A model generated the notes under the pieces. It was not told where the DNA came from and searched no databases. It was given only the letters and a program-made list of their open reading frames with translations. Below are positions 3,200 to 59,329 of a DNA stretch of 64,000 nt, one piece after another. The position numbers were made by a program, and so were the translations under genes. Position 1 is the stretch's first letter. Each line of letters opens with the position of its first letter. The DNA comes from a virus. Lineage: Duplodnaviria > Caudoviricetes. The stretch is from positions 128,001-192,000 of IMG/VR virus record IMGVR_UViG_3300038443_002533. One strand, 5' to 3'.

Positions 3200-3487
3200 A
3201 TGTCTAACATCCGTCTCGGCAACAAAACCTACCGCAACGTCGAACAGTTCCCACTCGACGATATCGCGAAGCTCCTCGATGAAGTGAACGCCGAACTGGC
3301 CAAACTGACGGTGCGCGTGAATGAACAACTCGACCGCGGCCACGCCATCAAACCGAAAGACTGGGCGGCGCGTAAACGCCTCGACCAGTACGGGTATTTC
3401 CTGACCCAGCTCGCTCGGGAAGTGATGCTCAAGAACACCCCGCGCACGATCCTCAAACCGCTGGCGCGTTTCGTGAAACACTTGTAA
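3200..3487 (+). CDS. hypothetical protein, paralog A (MSNIRxGxKTYR family)
   Basis: N-terminus nearly identical to ORF 3498. Confidence 0.75.
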   Translation: MSNIRLGNKTYRNVEQFPLDDIAKLLDEVNAELAKLTVRVNEQLDRGHAIKPKDWAARKRLDQYGYFLTQLAREVMLKNTPRTILKPLARFVKHL

Positions 3488-3497
3488 GGCGATCACC

Positions 3498-3770
3498 ATG
3501 TCGAATATTCGTATTGGCGGGAAGACCTACCGCGACGTTGAAAAGATGTCGTTGGATGAATTGCGGCAAGTGGCGCAAGCGATGTTCAAAAGGTCGACTG
3601 TTCTGCAAAAGACAACCGAGGCCACTGTGTTTAATAAGGGCAGTATGCATCGGGGATCGGCCGTGATCGCAGAAATCCAAGCCCTGGAAAAGCGTTCCAA
3701 GTTAATCGATCACCTGATGAAACAAAGGGAAGCCGATGAACAAACCGCTCAGGCTCCTTCAGGAGCATAA
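3498..3770 (+). CDS. hypothetical protein, paralog B (MSNIRxGxKTYR family)
   Basis: MSNIRIGGKTYRDVE vs MSNIRLGNKTYRNVE. Confidence 0.75.
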   Translation: MSNIRIGGKTYRDVEKMSLDELRQVAQAMFKRSTVLQKTTEATVFNKGSMHRGSAVIAEIQALEKRSKLIDHLMKQREADEQTAQAPSGA

Positions 3771-33555: not shown

Positions 33556-33822
33556 ATGGCACTTATTCCTACTGGCGTTAACATCATCTACGATCTGTTG
33601 AACGCCCCGAAAGACAAGAACCCGCAAGAGCAGATGGCGGAACTGGGCATCACGTGCCAACGTGTTATCCCCGAACCCATCATCCATCTCTGGCGTTTCA
33701 TCTCTGTTGACCGCGCGACGATTCCCGCTGAGTTGCCCCCGTACCTCAGTCTGGTGTATCTGAACGTCCAGCAATGGAACGAAGAACTCGAAACGCTGAA
33801 GCAACTCAGCCTGAAGAAATAA
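33556..33822 (+). CDS. hypothetical protein
   Basis: 88-aa ORF after the HAD gene. Confidence 0.65.
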   Translation: MALIPTGVNIIYDLLNAPKDKNPQEQMAELGITCQRVIPEPIIHLWRFISVDRATIPAELPPYLSLVYLNVQQWNEELETLKQLSLKK

Positions 33823-33874
33823 ACGGCGTACCACCCACTTGACCCCGACCGCAGTCAGGACCAAGTGGTGTAAG

Positions 33875-34225
33875 TTACGGGTTGTACGGCACGGCCAAAC
33901 CGTTGCTGACGAGTTGATCGTTCAGGCTGGTCGAAGTATTCGGCAGATACACATCCGCCAGATAGCGACCATACTTCTCCTTCTTGTCCGCGACGGTTTG
34001 GATCACCACCGGGGCGTTAGCCGGCAGTTGTTGCTGAAGCCAAGCGCGTGAATCTTTCCCGGCTTGGGTGCTGACTTCGGGGGCGTTGATACCGTTGAAG
34101 CGGCAGGTCATGTTGATGTGGATATCGCATCCCAAGTCAACATTGAATTCTGCGGTATCGCCATCGATGACGCGAATCACGGTGGCGTTACGGATGTACA
34201 CATCTTTCTTTTTGGCGGCTGTCAT
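33875..34225 (-). CDS. thermonuclease (staphylococcal nuclease-like)
   Basis: VIRVIDGDT, RFNGINAPE, EKYGRYLA, LN..LV..GLA. Only convincing minus-strand gene. Confidence 0.9.
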   Translation of the reverse strand: MTAAKKKDVYIRNATVIRVIDGDTAEFNVDLGCDIHINMTCRFNGINAPEVSTQAGKDSRAWLQQQLPANAPVVIQTVADKKEKYGRYLADVYLPNTSTSLNDQLVSNGLAVPYNP

Positions 34226-34273
34226 GGTGGGCTCCTATGCAAAGGGGGTTCATAGCATCCGCGCAGTACCAAT

Positions 34274-34428
34274 GGTCAAGATGGCGAAGTGGAAGACGCA
34301 GCTGACGCTCCGGGTGCAAGTGATCAGTATTTGAACGAGCAGTAGGGTATCTACCGGGTCCATGATCGGGGCGGGTACTCAGATAAACTGTTCTAGTAGA
34401 ACGGAGGTTCGATTCCTTCTCTTGACCA
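34274..34428 (+). ncRNA. tRNA-like RNA 1 (155 nt; expanded anticodon and variable regions)
   Basis: GGTCAAGA/TCTTGACC acceptor, Leu/Ser-type D arm GCG-AAGTGGAAGA-CGC, T arm GGAGG-TTCGATT-CCTTC, ~105 nt between. Confidence 0.7.
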
Positions 34429-34439
34429 CTCAGTTTTAT

Positions 34440-34515
34440 GGGGAAGTCGCCCAGCAGGTTTATTGACCTGACCCACTGTAGGCACGCGCAGGTGCGAATC
34501 CTGCCTTCCCCGCCA
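34440..34515 (+). ncRNA. tRNA-like RNA 2 (76 nt; D and anticodon arms fused into one arm)
   Basis: GGGGAAG/CTTCCCC + G + CCA; T arm GCAGG-TGCGAAT-CCTGC. Confidence 0.75.
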
Positions 34516-34532
34516 CTCAACCGTAGTACGTA

Positions 34533-34692
34533 GGGCATGTAGCTCAGTGATAGAGCACCGTCCATTACCCTTGGGGTCGCTGGTTCGAGTCCAGCCTGGG
34601 GAGTATGCGAATACTCGCTGGTAGCTCAGATGGTTAGAGCACAAGGCTTGCTTAGACGGAGGTCGTGGGTTTGATCCCTGCCATGTCCATCA
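34533..34692 (+). ncRNA. tRNA-like RNA 3: twin tRNA (permuted tRNA nested in the anticodon loop of another)
   Basis: Outer GGGCATG/CATGTCC and CCGTC/GACGG. Inner CCTTG...T arm...CTGGGGA-GTAT-GCGA-ATAC-TCGCTGG...D arm...CAAGG. Confidence 0.85.
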
Positions 34693-34698
34693 AGAATT

Positions 34699-34807
34699 CT
34701 TAATAAGTGGTAAAGTAGATCAACGCGGAGAACCGACGCGCTACAAGGGATACCTCGCTCTGGTTGGTTCACTGGAACGAAGGAGTTTGACCCTGCCACT
34801 TATTAAG
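34699..34807 (+). ncRNA. tRNA-like RNA 4 (long closing stem, T-loop-like hairpin, internal domain)
   Basis: 14-bp stem CTTAATAAGTGGTA/TGCCACTTATTAAG; GTTTGACC loop next to the 3' strand. Confidence 0.5.
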
Positions 34808-34826
34808 TGTTTTTAAGTTTCACGTA

Positions 34827-34964
34827 GGGCGTTTAGCTCAGTTGGTAGAGCACGGCTAAAGGTGGGCACCGACAAACCCACACCAGCTTAACAGGCTGGG
34901 GCCGAAAGGCAGTCACCATTCATTAAAGCCGAGGTCATGTGTTCGAATCACGTAACGTCCACCA
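34827..34964 (+). ncRNA. tRNA-like RNA 5 (69-nt three-hairpin insert replacing the anticodon loop)
   Basis: GGGCGTT/AACGTCC+ACCA, canonical D arm, CGGCT/AGCCG stem, AGGTC, ATGTG-TTCGAAT-CACGT. Confidence 0.88.
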
Positions 34965-34973
34965 AGTTTCAAA

Positions 34974-35040
34974 GGGTGTGTAGCTCAGCTGGTAGAGCGT
35001 AGTCATGCAAGATTGTGGGGGTTCGAGTCCCCCCATTCTC
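34974..35040 (+). ncRNA. tRNA-like RNA 6 (67 nt; 6-nt anticodon loop ATGCAA, 1-nt variable region, no CCA)
   Basis: Canonical D arm and GGGGG-TTCGAGT-CCCCC T arm. Confidence 0.7.
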
Positions 35041-35046
35041 TCGATT

Positions 35047-35138
35047 GGGAATGTGGCGGAATTGGTAGACGCGCCGTTCTAACGGACGGTTATCACATTA
35101 GGCTAAGGTCATGGGTTCAAATCCTGTCACATCCACCA
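35047..35138 (+). ncRNA. tRNA-like RNA 7 (Leu-like; anticodon loop collapsed to 4 nt)
   Basis: GCGGAATTGGTAGACGC D arm, CCGT-TCTA-ACGG, long variable region, T arm, CACATCC-ACCA. Confidence 0.72.
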
Positions 35139-35156
35139 AGTTTCAAGCAGTACCGT

Positions 35157-35234
35157 AGGGGAGTCGCCAAGTTGGTCCAAGGCCCCGGATTTTGATTCCG
35201 GCATTCGAAGGTTCGAATCCTTCCTCCTCTGCCA
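35157..35234 (+). tRNA. tRNA-Gln(TTG)
   Basis: Full cloverleaf AGGGGAG/CTCCTCT, CCGGA-TTTTGAT-TCCGG, G-CCA end. Confidence 0.95.
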
Positions 35235-35315
35235 GATTTTCGTAGGACTGTTTGATGAACAGAGTAAAATCATCATGGTAGAGATACCACTTACTAGGCA
35301 CTAGGAGAATGTACC

Positions 35316-35780
35316 ATGGCTGGATTTGTGAAATTGATGTCGAATGAAAACCTGCCGGACGCAAGTCCGTTCAAAGGCTATCAGCTGATCAGCTTACCGG
35401 ACGCTGGCAAGGTCGAATTCAAACGTAATGAGCGAGGTCTCGATACGTGTGTGATCTACACCCCGGAGCATGATCCAGAAGAATACCTGATGTACGGCAA
35501 TGCGTATATCCTGAGCGACTCGGGTAAAACCATTGCTTCCCATGGCACCAACGTGCCCTGCGCATTGGAACCGGGTCAAGAGATCAATGACGCTAAGGTG
35601 GCGGTTAGCGCACTGCTTACGCTGGAACCTGACGATCTGAAAGCGGCCCTTTGCCATCTGGTTGCAACTAAGCCGGAAACCATCCGTGTCATGGGTGGCG
35701 TCATAGCCAATTTGGCGCGGGCCGGAAACGAAGCTGCTATTTACTCAATTCGTCCCGCGGTCGAACACATCAGCACGTAA
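35316..35780 (+). CDS. conserved hypothetical phage protein (GNAYILSDSGKTI motif)
   Basis: SD AGGAG; motif common in phage proteins. Confidence 0.75.
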   Translation: MAGFVKLMSNENLPDASPFKGYQLISLPDAGKVEFKRNERGLDTCVIYTPEHDPEEYLMYGNAYILSDSGKTIASHGTNVPCALEPGQEINDAKVAVSALLTLEPDDLKAALCHLVATKPETIRVMGGVIANLARAGNEAAIYSIRPAVEHIST

Positions 35781-35956
35781 CACCGATCAATGCCCAAGTC
35801 AGTTATTCCCTCCAACCGATTTCGTCATGAAAGATGGCGCATCTGGCTAAAAGTGAATTCCAAGGCCTGACTAGGGCGCCCCTTTGGCTTTATTAGTTGA
35901 AAGAGGTGTTGTGCCACCACACGCCGTCAATCGAGTAGACTAATAAAGCCTTCCCT

Positions 35957-36032
35957 TCCCCGATAGCTCAGCCGGTAGAGCGACGGACTGTTAATCCGCA
36001 GGTCCCTGGTTCGAATCCAGGTCGGGGAGCCA
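35957..36032 (+). tRNA. tRNA-Asn(GTT)
   Basis: TCCCCGA/TCGGGGA, loop CTGTTAA, G-CCA end. Confidence 0.96.
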
Positions 36033-36039
36033 CGAACAT

Positions 36040-36860
36040 AAAAGCTGGAATCTAAGCTAGTAGAGTTATCCTTTAACTTGTGCTGGGGTTGTGTTGTTGA
36101 CACTTTACAACTAAGGCTTGGGTTCCGCCTTTTGTGTTTAACTGTCTTTGGGTTTGACTTGGATCGACCGCGAGTCGCAATTACCATACGAGCGATTACG
36201 ATTATCGAAGAACATATTGGCCTGACTCACAAGTCACCTGGTCAAACCCACCCTTTTTCAGAGGACGCACGTGAGGTCGTGCAGGCTTGAGTATCAAGTC
36301 TAGAATGGGCGTGGCTCCTTACACCTACGGGGATACTTAAGGGAGTCGAGGGAAGTGAGATCTCATCAATCTCCACAATGTGGGTGCAACCCACCCCAAT
36401 ACTCGCACACAGGAACGCCGTGGAAATCGGTGAACAACCAGGAGATGAGCCTGGTCCTCTGAGCTATTCTAAATAAAGGTACTGATGAGCCGTGGAAGTC
36501 GGCCCCTGTGCATACAGGCAAGGTTGCAAACCCTTCGAAACATCTCTTGCGCTTCAAGATACAACGAGATGTATACCAATGGACTTAACAGTGGTAGCCG
36601 TTGCTCTTGTCACCTCCGGGGTCTTGATGGGAGTCTAGTAGCGTTTCTGACACGAGCGCTGAAACTGTACGACTGGTTCAACCCTGTCGGCGTCTGTCAA
36701 ACGTCGTGGAGAGAGGATCAGTAAGTTGTACAACGCGTAAGCTGTGCCGCACGCTCCTAGTGAGCGGGTTCAGTGAGAAGCTAGGTCGTGCAAGACCAAG
36801 TTGTGCAGCCATTGTGAGATTGCGTCGGTTTGGCCAGACTGGCGCAGTTGTATCGGTGTG
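36040..36860 (+). ncRNA. candidate large structured ncRNA (~800 nt)
   Basis: No credible ORF. Perfect 10-bp long-range helix 36149-36158/36241-36250 plus many hairpins. Confidence 0.55.
36478..36577 (+). ncRNA. type I hammerhead ribozyme-like core with multibranched stem II
   Basis: GGTA-CTGATGA-G...C-GAAA-CATCTC...GAGATG-TA-TACC. Confidence 0.6.
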
Positions 36861-36931
36861 AGGCGGGGGAGGGGTGCAAAACTCTCCCCCGTTTCTTATT
36901 CTTTTTATGCCGTCAAAATCTAGGAGTAACT

Positions 36932-37669
36932 ATGTGGAACTTTTTCAAACGACTGTTTGGCGGTGGTAAACGACAAGAACCCCAGATCGATAAGCCGAGC
37001 GGATCGGCGGGCCGCTGCACACCGTACATGACACCGCTCAGTTCCATCAAACCGAAGTCACCGGAGCCCGTTAAAGAAGATCTGAAGCGCCCCAACGGCC
37101 AATGGGAAGAAACGGAAAACCAACGGCCGCCCGAAAGCGTATGGCAACAAAGCTTGCGGCGCGAAATCAATAAGGTTGAAAAACGTCAACGCTACAATGA
37201 AATTTTGAGCCAAGCTGGGATGGATGTTCGCGCCAGGCGATTCGAAGCCGTGCAACAGTCCGTCGATCGGGTTCGCCAAGAAGCACTCAACTCCGCCACC
37301 CCCCAGATGAGTCGACCGCAATTACCGCCCCATGCGTTGACGGATTCGGCGCGCCTGGATTTGGTCCGAAGAGCAACGCTGAGCACCATGTCCCAGCGCC
37401 CAGGATTACAAGCTGGGCTAGACGCGGTTCAGCGTGACATCGAAGCGCGCCGTCGACAGAACGAAGAAGACGAACGTCGTCGCCGTGAAGCCGATGATGA
37501 AGACCGTCGCCGTCGTAACAACGATGACACATTGAATTTGTTGGTAGGCTTATCCTCGATAATTTCTGACACCGTATCCTCATCGTCTGATTCCAGCCCC
37601 AGCTCGGATCCGTTCAGCGGCGGCGGTGGTTCCTTTGACGGCGGTGGTGCTTCTGGAGATTGGTCATGA
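36932..37669 (+). CDS. hypothetical protein with acidic/Arg coiled coil and Gly-Ser tail
   Basis: SD AGGAG before ATG 36932; ends FSGGGGSFDGGGASGDWS. Confidence 0.75.
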   Translation: MWNFFKRLFGGGKRQEPQIDKPSGSAGRCTPYMTPLSSIKPKSPEPVKEDLKRPNGQWEETENQRPPESVWQQSLRREINKVEKRQRYNEILSQAGMDVRARRFEAVQQSVDRVRQEALNSATPQMSRPQLPPHALTDSARLDLVRRATLSTMSQRPGLQAGLDAVQRDIEARRRQNEEDERRRREADDEDRRRRNNDDTLNLLVGLSSIISDTVSSSSDSSPSSDPFSGGGGSFDGGGASGDWS

Positions 37670-38739: not shown

Positions 38740-38823
38740 TAGTATGTAGTACGTAGTAGGTAGTGCATGATTTATCGGTGGAGATGGTGGGATCGAAAAC
38801 TCCATTCACCATCGAGAAAAATC

Positions 38824-39393
38824 ATGAAGAAAATTGCATCTTTGTTTCAACGTAACTATGACGGCGATCGTCAAGTGCGTAATGAAGTCGTTCCGGGTTC
38901 GGAATGGGTAATCCACGGCGAAGGGTATGCGACCCGTAAATGGGATGGCATGGCTATTAAGCTGGAGAACGCTCAGTTCTTTAAGCGTTATGATGCGAAG
39001 GCTGGCAGAACACCGCCCCCTGAATTCATTCCTGCCCAACCGGCGCCTGATCCACAAACTGGCCACTGGCCTGGTTGGGTGCCGTTGCAAGGGAAAGAAC
39101 TCAATCGCGTAGTAGCGGCGTATCAAGACAGCGGCATCACGGAAGACGGCACATTCGAATTCTGTGGACCGACGATTGGTACCCGCCATGGCGCCAACCC
39201 TGAACGGCTCACCAAGCACATCCTGGTGCCCCACGGGCAAGACATCCTGGCCGACTGTCCGCGTGACTTCGATGGGCTCAAAGCCTATCTGGCGAATGCG
39301 GATATCGAAGGGGTGGTGTGGTGGCATCCGGATGGTCGTAAGGTCAAGATCAAAGCAGCTGATTTTGGCCTCGTCAGGCACGCAGTAATCTGA
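38824..39393 (+). CDS. DUF5565 / RLIG1(C12orf29)-like ATP-dependent RNA ligase
   Basis: Motif I TRKWDG, KRYD, GHWPGW, GTFEFCG, L.PHG, motif IV EGVVW, motif V KIK. Confidence 0.75.
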   Translation: MKKIASLFQRNYDGDRQVRNEVVPGSEWVIHGEGYATRKWDGMAIKLENAQFFKRYDAKAGRTPPPEFIPAQPAPDPQTGHWPGWVPLQGKELNRVVAAYQDSGITEDGTFEFCGPTIGTRHGANPERLTKHILVPHGQDILADCPRDFDGLKAYLANADIEGVVWWHPDGRKVKIKAADFGLVRHAVI

Positions 39394-58066: not shown

Positions 58067-59329
58067 ATGCAGATGTATTGGGTAGGTGGCGCCGTCCGCG
58101 ATCGACTCCTCGGGATGCAACCGAAAGATATCGATGTCGTGGTGGTGGGTTCCACGGCCGAAGAAATGTTGGATAATGGCTTTCGTCAAATCGGTAAAGA
58201 CTTCCCGATCTTTATCAGTCGGCTCGACGAGCTGCATGGCGATAAAGCCGAGTATTCGCTCGCGCGTCGTTCCCGCAAAAATGGAAATGCCGATTTCGGT
58301 CCGGAAGTCACCCTCAAAGAAGATCTCGGTAAACGGGATCTGACCATCAACGCCATGGCCATCGAGATCAATGGCTTCCTGAATAGCCATACGTTTCAGC
58401 TGGTCGACCCGTATTGCGGGCACGATGATCTGCTGAATAAGGTGTTGCGGATGGTGAGCAGCGAAGCCTTCTATGAAGACCCGATCCGGGTGTTGCGTGT
58501 GGCGAGATTCGCTGCGCGTTACCCGGACTTCAGGATCGATCCCGACACCATGGAAACCATGTGGACCATGGTGTTCGAGGGGTTGCTCGATAACCTCGTC
58601 CCGGAACGGGTGTGGAAGGAACTGTCGCGGGGTCTGATGGAAGTCAAGCCTTCGCGGATGTTGCAAGTCTTGCGGCAATGCGGAGCGTTGGAAAAGATTC
58701 TGCCGGAAGTCGATGCGCTGTACGGTGTCCCGCAACCGGAGAAACACCACCCGGAAGTCGACACGGGTATCCACATCGAGCAAGTCCTCGATTATGCGGC
58801 CAGCCAGAACTTCGATTTGCCAGTTCGGTTCGCGTGCTTGATGCATGATCTCGGCAAAGCCTTGTCGCCGAAGGACACCTGGCCGGCCCACCACGGGCAT
58901 GAAGGGGCGGGAGCGGACCTCGTGTCGAATGTGTGCGTGCGTTTGAACGTCCCGATGACCCTCGCCAAAATCGCGATCCAAACGACGACGTGGCACGGTG
59001 TGATCCACCAGTCCATGAAGGTCAAGCACACCACGATCGTGAAGCTCTTGCGGCACTGCGATGCGTTCCGTAACCCGGACCGTTTCCAATACGTGCTGCA
59101 AGCCTGCATGTGCGATGCCCGCGGGCGTAAGTCCGACACGGTCAGTTTCGAAAACGTCGAGTACCCGCAGGCCATGCGCTTGAGCGGTGCTCTGTGGGCT
59201 GCCCGCCAAATCAAGGGCAATGAGATCGCGAAGCAATTCCAAGATCGTCCGGAATACATCGCAGTCAGTATGCATGCGGCACGTGCTCGCGCCATCAAAG
59301 CGTTCGACCGTCAACAGAAAGGAGCTTAA
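58067..59329 (+). CDS. cca: class II tRNA nucleotidyltransferase with HD domain (multifunctional CCA protein-like)
   Basis: VGGAVRD.LLG, DIDVVV, GKDFP.F, EDL.KRD.TINAMA, EDP.RVLR.ARFAAR, ERVW.E, HHPE.D.G.H, HDLGK. Confidence 0.93.
   Translation: MQMYWVGGAVRDRLLGMQPKDIDVVVVGSTAEEMLDNGFRQIGKDFPIFISRLDELHGDKAEYSLARRSRKNGNADFGPEVTLKEDLGKRDLTINAMAIEINGFLNSHTFQLVDPYCGHDDLLNKVLRMVSSEAFYEDPIRVLRVARFAARYPDFRIDPDTMETMWTMVFEGLLDNLVPERVWKELSRGLMEVKPSRMLQVLRQCGALEKILPEVDALYGVPQPEKHHPEVDTGIHIEQVLDYAASQNFDLPVRFACLMHDLGKALSPKDTWPAHHGHEGAGADLVSNVCVRLNVPMTLAKIAIQTTTWHGVIHQSMKVKHTTIVKLLRHCDAFRNPDRFQYVLQACMCDARGRKSDTVSFENVEYPQAMRLSGALWAARQIKGNEIAKQFQDRPEYIAVSMHAARARAIKAFDRQQKGA

Follow-up and report, generated by a model that had tools for sequence, protein, structure and literature searches.

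An array of non-decoding, mostly tRNA-like units beside tRNA-Gln in a phage genome

The reason why phages carry transfer RNA (tRNA) genes is still debated, and a locus in which two canonical tRNAs stand beside six units that cannot decode raises the matter in another form: what could a tRNA frame be kept for, if not for decoding? The locus lies in a stretch of 64,000 nucleotides (nt), here called the window, that comprises bases 128001-192000 of a complete Caudoviricetes virus record (IMGVR_UViG_3300038443_002533; 272,470 base pairs (bp), with direct terminal repeats). The six units form an array on the + strand, at window positions 34274-35138, directly upstream of a tRNA-Gln gene, and none of them can decode because every one is without an anticodon loop. 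The architecture, conservation, covariation, identity nucleotides and gene context of the units have been established by sequence analysis. The interpretation proposed, with a probability of roughly 0.58, is that the units are non-decoding tRNA mimics, matured by RNase P and CCA addition, that would act as decoys or tethers, their processing and function being the parts that we infer.

Array layout and tRNA-model tests

Default ARAGORN analysis of the entire window has revealed two genes only, a canonical tRNA-Gln(UUG) with an encoded CCA (35157-35234, + strand), which closes the array with leaders and spacers of the same style as those of the units, and a canonical tRNA-Asn(GUU) (35957-36032, + strand). 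In the whole genome, matches to the Rfam tRNA model are confined to window positions 34440-36029. The initial annotation, made from the sequence alone, had seen no normal 7-nt anticodon loop in any element and had suggested ARAGORN and Rfam as a check; in these runs no unit was called as a canonical tRNA (0/6 by default ARAGORN), with inserts of 62-89 nt, or a single long arm, where the loops would be. With the Rfam tRNA model (RF00005, gathering threshold 29 bits), the two halves of unit 6 scored 39.6 and 31.7 bits and the other units 18-27 bits or gave no match. When introns were allowed, ARAGORN modelled insert-bearing tRNAs, with three such calls in this 1 kilobase (kb) and unit 3 as a fourth at a lower threshold. 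The same settings were applied to 1.05 megabases (Mb) of unrelated viral DNA, consisting of the loci of the unspecific 14-mer TCCACCAAGTTTCA (at least 120 chance matches), and only three of 119 tRNA calls were insert-bearing (116 plain), so that three to four insert-bearing calls per 1 kb are not due to chance.

The run of elements on the + strand between 34274 and 35138 had been described as seven tRNA-chassis elements, each with a T arm and a closed acceptor-type stem. The run itself stands, but the count becomes six, with elements 6 and 7 forming a single unit, and the two features were found in units 1, 2, 3, 5 and 6 but not in the fourth element, which is without a convincing T arm. The T arms of the array amount to six copies of one repeat family (D1), and the acceptor stems are perfect or near perfect (7/7 or 8/8 pairs in units 1, 2, 3, 5 and 6). 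D arms are mostly kept, as had been noted, being present in units 1, 3, 5 and 6, with none in unit 2, and unit 4 has neither these nor the acceptor and T-arm features. The encoded NCCA ends reported at 34515, 34964 and 35138 are present in the sequence, and so are the shared leaders and spacers: ACGTA precedes both 34533 and 34827, and the spacer AAGTTTCA follows 34964 and 35138 (repeat families D4 and D10). The outer scaffolds of units 3, 5 and 6 are paralogs that are 85-90% identical, with compensatory differences, and their inserts are unrelated; to this extent the earlier idea of a tRNA scaffold displaying cargo agrees with the data.

Two units carry clusters of hairpins. Unit 1 (34274-34428, + strand; ARAGORN and RNAalifold) combines a Leu-type D arm and a T arm with three hairpins (about 75 nt) that replace the anticodon region. 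Its acceptor has 8 bp (34274-34281 with 34420-34427, that is, G-1:C73 plus 7 bp), CCA is not encoded, and ARAGORN with introns models it as 34274-34429 with an insert of 73 nt. In an antisense test, the invariant 19-nt stretch of this insert had no target in the phage genome with up to three mismatches allowed. Unit 5 (34827-34964, + strand; ARAGORN, fold z = -2.4) has a tRNA frame of alanine identity (G3.U70, A73 and CCA), canonical D and T arms and an anticodon stem (34853-34857 with 34927-34931), the loop of which is replaced by a 69-nt insert with three hairpins; ARAGORN with introns gives the same unit (34827-34964) an insert of 62 nt.

Two further units are of other types. Unit 2 (34440-34515, + strand; 76 nt; fold and Rfam) has a 7-bp acceptor, G73, an encoded CCA and a T arm (loop TGCGAAT); the D and anticodon arms give way to a single long irregular arm. 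Its minimum free energy (MFE) structure represents 60% of the ensemble (z = -2.6), and its Rfam tRNA score of 25.4 bits is below the threshold. Unit 4 (34699-34807, + strand; about 110 nt; fold, z = -1.4) is an element of uncertain status, not tRNA-like, that is closed by a 14-bp helix (34699-34712 with 34794-34807); no Rfam match was obtained for it, and no homolog was found among the relatives examined.

A scan for sigma-70 promoters in the region 33800-37000 found none, and the sole terminator-like site in this region is a hairpin at 36860-36895. The window shows no enrichment of the leader motif YGTAGKA (16 observed versus 14 expected); GTAGTA-type motifs precede many units in the arrays of relatives. 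Downstream of tRNA-Asn, window positions 36035-36895 contain few open reading frames (ORFs) of at least 60 amino acids until about 36830 and gave no Rfam match at gathering thresholds.

Nested units and their likeness to YrlA RNAs

Unit 3 (34533-34689, + strand; pair counts and RNAalifold) is a tRNA nested within a tRNA, with its own outer D and T arms. The outer acceptor GGGCATG/CATGTCC pairs 34533-34539 with 34682-34688, including G3.U70, and is followed by A73 at 34689; the outer anticodon stem CCGTC/GACGG pairs 34558-34562 with 34655-34659. The position of the anticodon loop is occupied by a 5-bp stem (CCTTG/CAAGG), preceded by 6 nt and followed by 8 nt of single strand, and this stem leads into a complete second tRNA body. 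The inner domain that it closes (34569-34646, + strand; Rfam YrlA model and blastn) is a circularly permuted tRNA body in which a T arm (34579-34595) is followed by an acceptor hairpin (34596-34621) of 7+4 bp, capped by the GNRA loop GCGA, and by a D arm (34624-34640). The nested second tRNA that had been reported in the element at 34533 is borne out by the pairing of the acceptors, 13/14 when swapped versus 5/14 in tandem, and the anticodon stems are likewise swapped. With introns allowed, ARAGORN at a lowered threshold gives 34533-34689 as a tRNA with an 85-nt insert.

Unit 6 (34974-35138, + strand; ARAGORN, pair counts and MFE) is a nested or acceptor-swapped double tRNA. Its outer acceptor pairs 34974-34980 with 35128-35134 (7/7, with G3.U70) and is followed by A73 and CCA. 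The inner part consists of a T arm (35017-35033), a 7-bp acceptor hairpin with the loop TCGATT (35034-35053), formed by 7/7 pairs between its 3' strand (35034) and its 5' strand (35047), a Leu-type D arm and a 7-bp hairpin at 35073-35090. Both swapped acceptor helices are contained in the MFE fold, and ARAGORN models the unit as a single tRNA with an 89-nt insert at position 38/39. The initial annotation had listed 34974 and 35047 as separate elements, a division that does not hold: swapped pairing accounts for 14/14 acceptor pairs and tandem pairing for 11/14, and each of 67 adjacent canonical tRNA pairs has 12-14 of 14 acceptor pairs, all above the tandem reading of unit 6. The outer anticodon stem of this unit is uncertain because TAGTC/GGCTA competes with a local hairpin, TAGTC/GATTG, that is preferred by the MFE fold.

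The two inner halves of unit 3 resemble the tRNA-Asn of the phage itself (83% and 75%), which is likely the evolutionary source of the inner domain; the similarity suggests an origin of the nested form from tRNA genes, followed by its retention.

The inner domains of units 3 and 6 have the part order of YrlA, a tRNA-like Y RNA (Rfam RF02553; PMC4201824; bioRxiv 10.1101/312249), namely T arm, closed acceptor-like hairpin and D arm, and in both cases the 'anticodon' stem is formed by the two ends, giving a circularly permuted tRNA body. With the Rfam YrlA model unit 3 scored 31.3 bits (E value 2.7e-4), below the gathering threshold of 69 bits. Ordinary tandem tRNAs score 25-28 bits with this model and give sub-threshold matches in 13 of 14 control genomes; the YrlA score alone proves little, and it is the pairing pattern that decides. 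A blastn search of 50,697 phage records with the inner domain of unit 3 matched Vibrio phage BONAISHI and a group of Enterococcus phages. The BONAISHI match was the best (79% over 81 nt) and covered 94% of the inner domain. In BONAISHI and in Enterococcus phage EFDG1 the match lies just upstream of a gene annotated as RNA-binding protein, and the BONAISHI match is a genuine YrlA locus, since the adjacent protein has TROVE and Ro60 vWA domains. BONAISHI and EFDG1 each contain two unannotated YrlA-like RNAs (L016:381-500 and 583-694; L017:199-306 and 383-489), all four with sub-threshold scores of 34-59 bits with the YrlA model.

These likenesses would also be expected if the nested units were Y RNAs in the strict sense, which bind host Ro60/Rsr and redirect Ro60-PNPase decay, the outer tRNA replacing the stem or adding a handle. 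The YrlA architecture of the inner domain, its closest phage match to a YrlA beside a Ro60 gene and a score near the low end of those of bona fide phage YrlAs are all consistent with this explanation. The setting is not: a search of the complete 272-kb genome and of the genomes of five related phages gave no TROVE/Ro60 gene, so that the phage is without the one known partner of RNAs of the YrlA type, and the units sit in a tRNA array, unlike YrlA, which is found beside rsr. Binding of Ro60 has been linked to the motif GNCGAAN0-1G on the 5' strand of the YrlA stem (PMC4201824), and inspection of the strand that runs into the unit 3 inner domain did not reveal this motif; the sole GGCGAAG in the array sequence belongs to the unit 1 D arm. 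In YrlA the Ro60 site is carried by a long terminal stem, which here is replaced by another complete tRNA body, with CCA and an acceptor end that is open. A strict Y RNA function is thus given a low probability.

Conservation, covariation and identity nucleotides

The nearest named relatives at the tRNA region are the Burkholderia phages FLC9, BcepSaruman and BcepSauron and the Ralstonia phages FLC4-3B and FLC1-1B. The flanking genes led to two further relatives, the uncultivated phage genomes G001 (322,570 bp, locus L011) and G002 (226,011 bp, locus L012). Scans of metagenome contigs with the flanking protein of 154 amino acids, as a single sequence and as an alignment, found no further homologs, and scans of viral contigs with this protein and with an 18-mer of the unit 1 insert returned two related genomes and no more.

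The ortholog of unit 1 (L012:2486-2642) is 88.8% identical and that of unit 3 in L012 82%, while the adjacent 154-amino-acid protein is just 59-60% identical. RNAalifold comparison of unit 1 with its ortholog gave 49 pairs, five of which have changed compensatorily on both sides (three in the insert hairpins, among them two in the long hairpin, and one each in the acceptor and T stems), besides several exchanges between G.U and G-C. For unit 3, four homologs (window, L012 and two in L011) were aligned with MAFFT without forcing, and RNAalifold recovered the nested fold, with compensatory changes in 17 of 38 pairs. The conservation and covariation of the inserted domains, proposed earlier as a test against neutral pseudogenes, are therefore present in both the hairpin insert of unit 1 and the nested body of unit 3.

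The nested design itself was found in nine units of four jumbo-phage genomes (window, L012, L011 and FLC9), seven of them outside the window, and the nested units of FLC9 and L011 have sequences unrelated to those of the window. Over the nine units, the six shared helices are paired at 61/63, 45/45, 18/20, 44/45, 47/49 and 45/45 positions, with changes on both sides at 3-7 positions per helix, that is, at most of them. The inner acceptor hairpin has exactly 7 bp in 6/7 units, and its caps include GCGA (window) and UUCG (FLC9). It is thus supported by sequence comparison that the units are structured RNAs under selection and not decayed pseudogenes; the conservation and the compensatory changes are not explained by pseudogene decay, and the earlier argument against random decay is upheld by compensatory change in every helix and by the identity of unit 1 (89%) versus that of the flanking protein (60%). 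Two decoding tRNAs stand against six look-alikes, and the relatives are alike with other sequences, which argues that selection has kept the tRNA frame and not decoding.

Analogs of unit 5 with a different sequence occur in the relatives, with three hairpins at L011:1489-1622 and a simpler hairpin at L001:2888-3000 and L002:2877-2988. The FLC9 array (L001) also contains two unannotated RNAs, at 3270-3410 and 3510-3680; one, of about 125 nt with a 13-bp closing helix, is comparable to unit 4, and the other, of about 170 nt, bears a T arm and is closed by a 12-bp stem.

Contigs of two RNA libraries of a root-metagenome study, and of two DNA runs, were compared with positions 34100-36100, and a 97.5% identical relative was found. 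In this variant units 1 and 2 are contiguous, about 114 nt of other sequence replace units 3-5, and the match rejoins near 35106, so that even very close relatives do not have the same array content. The upstream flank diverges from 34271 leftwards. The five substitutions listed in units 1-2 fall, with one exception, at unpaired positions or change G.U to G-C; the two in unit 2 (34472 and 34485) are both unpaired in the MFE fold. In unit 4 of a DNA variant one change improves the helix and another breaks it. Contigs from the RNA libraries cover 34271-34548 and 35203-36002 of this relative at similar depth.

The variable content of the array bears on another explanation, in which the units, whether transcribed or not, would be functionless by-products (hybrid and duplicated halves) of recombination among repeated tRNA genes and would pair only through a common ancestral gene. 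As paralogous repeats the outer halves would indeed favour unequal crossing-over, the inner domain of unit 3 is similar to tRNA-Asn, array composition varies among close relatives and units 2 and 4 are homolog-free. A by-product of this kind does not account for compensatory changes in all helices or for conservation far above that of the flanking protein gene. Former spacers have moreover become helix extensions with GNRA or UUCG caps, four genomes share the design in sequences that are unrelated, and six such units are set against two canonical tRNAs in a compact phage genome. Recombination without function is considered very improbable.

Units 3, 5 and 6 all have G1-C72, G2-C71, G3.U70 and A73, with CCA encoded in two of them (unit 3 lacks it). 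The combination of G3.U70 and A73 is thus present in 3/3 class-I type units, and among 151 canonical phage-array tRNAs it is exclusive to tRNA-Ala (9 of 11 tRNA-Ala). Alanyl-tRNA synthetase (AlaRS) does not read the anticodon, so that units that have kept the alanine identity may be chargeable; the same identity (G3.U70, A73) is carried by transfer-messenger RNA (tmRNA).

These established properties of AlaRS and tmRNA, together with the four identity features and the encoded CCA, could mean that the alanine-identity units are charged by AlaRS and act through the amino acid, as mini-tmRNA rescuers, as donors of alanine to a non-ribosomal transferase or as sinks for AlaRS or EF-Tu. In the mini-tmRNA variant, the 8-codon frame of unit 5, which ends in a hairpin loop, would be the tag. 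Neither the ARAGORN nor the Rfam tmRNA model gave any call, this short frame is absent from the analogous L011 unit, and unit 5 was rejected as a mini-tmRNA on these two grounds. SmpB was not found in the phage (a host SmpB would be expected), and the full D arms and anticodon stems of the units are unlike the tRNA-like domain of tmRNA. The alanine identity is also lost in the L012 ortholog of unit 3 and in the FLC9 units; this loss and the irregular outer acceptors of the relatives mean that charging cannot be the general function, and an action through alanine is rated improbable.

The irregular outer acceptors were located at L011:60-745 and 1489-1622, L001:2700-3165, L012:2324-2474, L002:2877-2988 and L102:262-400. 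They are of three types, a bulged G, a 2-nt bulge and a 2x2 GC/AA internal loop, and the canonical tRNAs of the same arrays are regular. The element at L102:262-400, in an unrelated viral contig, is an insert-bearing tRNA-like element with a bulged G as in L011.

Several genes in the window could serve the maturation of such RNAs or the excision of inserts. A CCA-adding enzyme with head, RNA-binding and HD domains (PF01743, PF12627 and PF01966) is encoded at 58067-59329 (+ strand), a protein with an RLIG1-like RNA ligase domain (PF17720, 29.5 bits) at 38767-39393 (+ strand), and a staphylococcal-nuclease homolog (PF00565) at 33875-34225 (- strand), divergent from the array. The G001 array is adjoined by an ortholog of the nuclease homolog (82% identical). 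The RLIG1-like domain is also present in FLC9 and G001 and falls under the family cut-off in FLC4-3B, and neither the ligase nor the CCA enzyme shows strict co-occurrence with the units in relatives. A tandem TGTAGTA-CGTAGTA lies at 38745-38758, immediately 5' of the RLIG1-like ORF.

With an RNA ligase-like gene and a nuclease gene nearby, the units might instead be tRNA genes with mobile, tRNA-shaped or hairpin inserts in the anticodon loop; these would be excised from the transcript and the halves resealed, perhaps by the RLIG1-like ligase, to yield working tRNAs. Four units are modelled by ARAGORN as intron-bearing tRNAs, the inserts are located in or beside the anticodon loop, the same scaffold carries different inserts, and array content differs in the 97.5% identical variant. 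The predicted products are nevertheless incongruous, since removal of the inserts leaves loops that do not match the acceptor identity, Ala-type acceptors being combined with GCA, GCU or AUU triplets. Insert boundaries vary among units (31/32, 38/39 or both sides of the loop), and no bulge-helix-bulge (BHB) motif was seen by inspection, the junctions being a 6-nt/8-nt internal loop in unit 3 and 7 nt/0 nt in unit 6. A group I intron is not indicated either, with no Rfam match up to an E value of 10 and inserts of 62-89 nt versus a ribozyme core of at least about 200 nt, and neither a splicing endonuclease (tRNA-intron endonuclease domain) nor RtcB was found in the phage. In the permuted inner body with its capped acceptor, RNase P or RNase Z would open the cap and not free exons. 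Moreover, the unit 1 insert is conserved with compensatory changes, and the bulged outer acceptors of the relatives are ill-suited to a working tRNA. Excision and resealing of the inserts is considered unlikely.

Proposed mechanism and comparison with known systems

If the units are non-decoding mimics, they would share a transcript with tRNA-Gln and follow the maturation path of tRNAs. This would entail cleavage by RNase P at the outer 5' end of each unit, trimming of the 3' end and addition of CCA, a step for which the phage encodes its own CCA-adding enzyme. The units would then accumulate as stable L-shaped or dumbbell RNAs that retain the parts recognised by proteins and by RNase P (acceptor stem, T arm and usually D arm) and present, at the anticodon position, either a hairpin cluster or a second, permuted tRNA body with a capped acceptor. 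As decoys or tethers they would bind, hold or bring together tRNA-recognising factors during infection. The second tRNA body corresponds to the module that in YrlA Y RNAs serves as effector-binding domain. In a YrlA with a 7-bp capped acceptor, cleavage by RNase P and CCA addition take place in vivo (PMC4201824), so that unit 6 and several units of the relatives could be opened to give RNAs in two pieces; unit 3 has an 11-bp helix with a GNRA cap and is likely to remain closed.

Decoys for anticodon nucleases, the least likely of the candidates put forward in the initial annotation, are doubtful because the loop read by those enzymes is missing from the units. More tentatively, and at somewhat less than even odds, the units may belong to a jumbo-phage family of 'two-headed' tRNA mimics, in which a body with a live acceptor is joined anticodon-to-anticodon to a capped body, and which would take part in the tRNA conflict between phage and host as decoys or tethers for enzymes or toxins that recognise tRNAs; hairpin cargo would be carried on the same scaffold, host machinery would perform the maturation, and some members may accept alanine or be split by RNase P into two-piece RNAs.

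Several observations weigh against the interpretation as matured mimics. Single-sequence folding z-scores are modest (-0.2 to -2.6), and the folding energy of the units is not distinct from that of shuffled sequences; structural support is drawn from comparison with relatives and not from folding energy. Part of the covariation is between paralogous or analogous units with stems delimited by the analyst, and units 2 and 4 are homolog-free outside the near-identical variant. The outer acceptors of relatives are frequently irregular: in the L012 ortholog of unit 3 the acceptor is interrupted by a 2x2 internal loop and is without G3.U70, five insert-bearing L011 units have a bulged G in the acceptor 3' strand (NNC-G-NNNN, in agreement with RNAfold), and a 2-nt acceptor bulge and a 2x2 loop are found in the units of FLC9 and FLC4-3B, respectively. 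To these are added the sub-threshold YrlA matches of ordinary tandem tRNAs and the missing Ro60 gene. The RNA-library contigs, with a depth similar to that of the neighbouring coding region, cannot show ends, strand or level or exclude carried-over DNA, and as assembled contigs they cannot be taken as evidence that the units are transcribed or processed; stretches that they leave uncovered carry no meaning.

In full-text searches of the literature, no account was found of a phage RNA in which a tRNA is nested within a tRNA or YrlA is fused to a tRNA. The earlier statement that no named class matches the array holds in this respect but not for the parts, as the inner domain has the YrlA architecture and T4 rnaC is an older T-arm-bearing example. 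If the more tentative 'two-headed' interpretation is true, the array would represent a tRNA-scaffold system of natural origin, in which the YrlA module is used independently of Ro60. The presence of this effector-binding module in a Ro60-free setting may help to identify its ligand. Analogous units are carried by the cultured relatives FLC9 (Burkholderia glumae) and FLC4-3B (Ralstonia), which makes the proposal testable at the bench.

Like the units, tmRNA (SsrA) is tRNA-like, has alanine identity and has its anticodon arm replaced by a large structured insert. The units differ from it in having full D arms and anticodon stems and in lacking the pseudoknot series, a conserved tag frame and a phage SmpB. 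Permuted and intron-containing tRNA genes of archaea and red algae (PMC3978253) share with the inner body the order of 3' half, linker and 5' half, and with the array the location of inserts at or near the anticodon loop; here, unlike there, no BHB and no splicing endonuclease are found, the setting is that of bacteria and phages, and the permuted body lies within another tRNA.

An older phage parallel is given by rnaC and rnaD of T4 (species 1 and 2 RNAs), which, like the units, are small stable RNAs of unassigned function at the end of a tRNA cluster. The MFE fold of rnaC contains the T-arm hairpin CCGGG-UUCGAAU-CCCGG, and its sequence can be read as having an imperfect acceptor-like stem that encloses hairpins of about 100 nt in all; the fold of rnaD has no tRNA-like arm. 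Two such RNAs accompany eight tRNAs in T4, whereas six accompany two in this phage, and the T4 RNAs have no nested tRNA, D arm, alanine identity or sequence similarity to the units. Species 1 and 2 RNAs have been unexplained for about fifty years. A man-made counterpart also exists, as engineered tRNA scaffolds were reportedly obtained by Ponchon and Dardel in 2007 by placing cargo at the anticodon stem, the chimera being processed and stabilised like a tRNA. The units would be the natural counterpart of this design, with predicted processing, and, if that processing is confirmed, would provide natural examples of the tRNA-scaffold principle used in recombinant RNA production.

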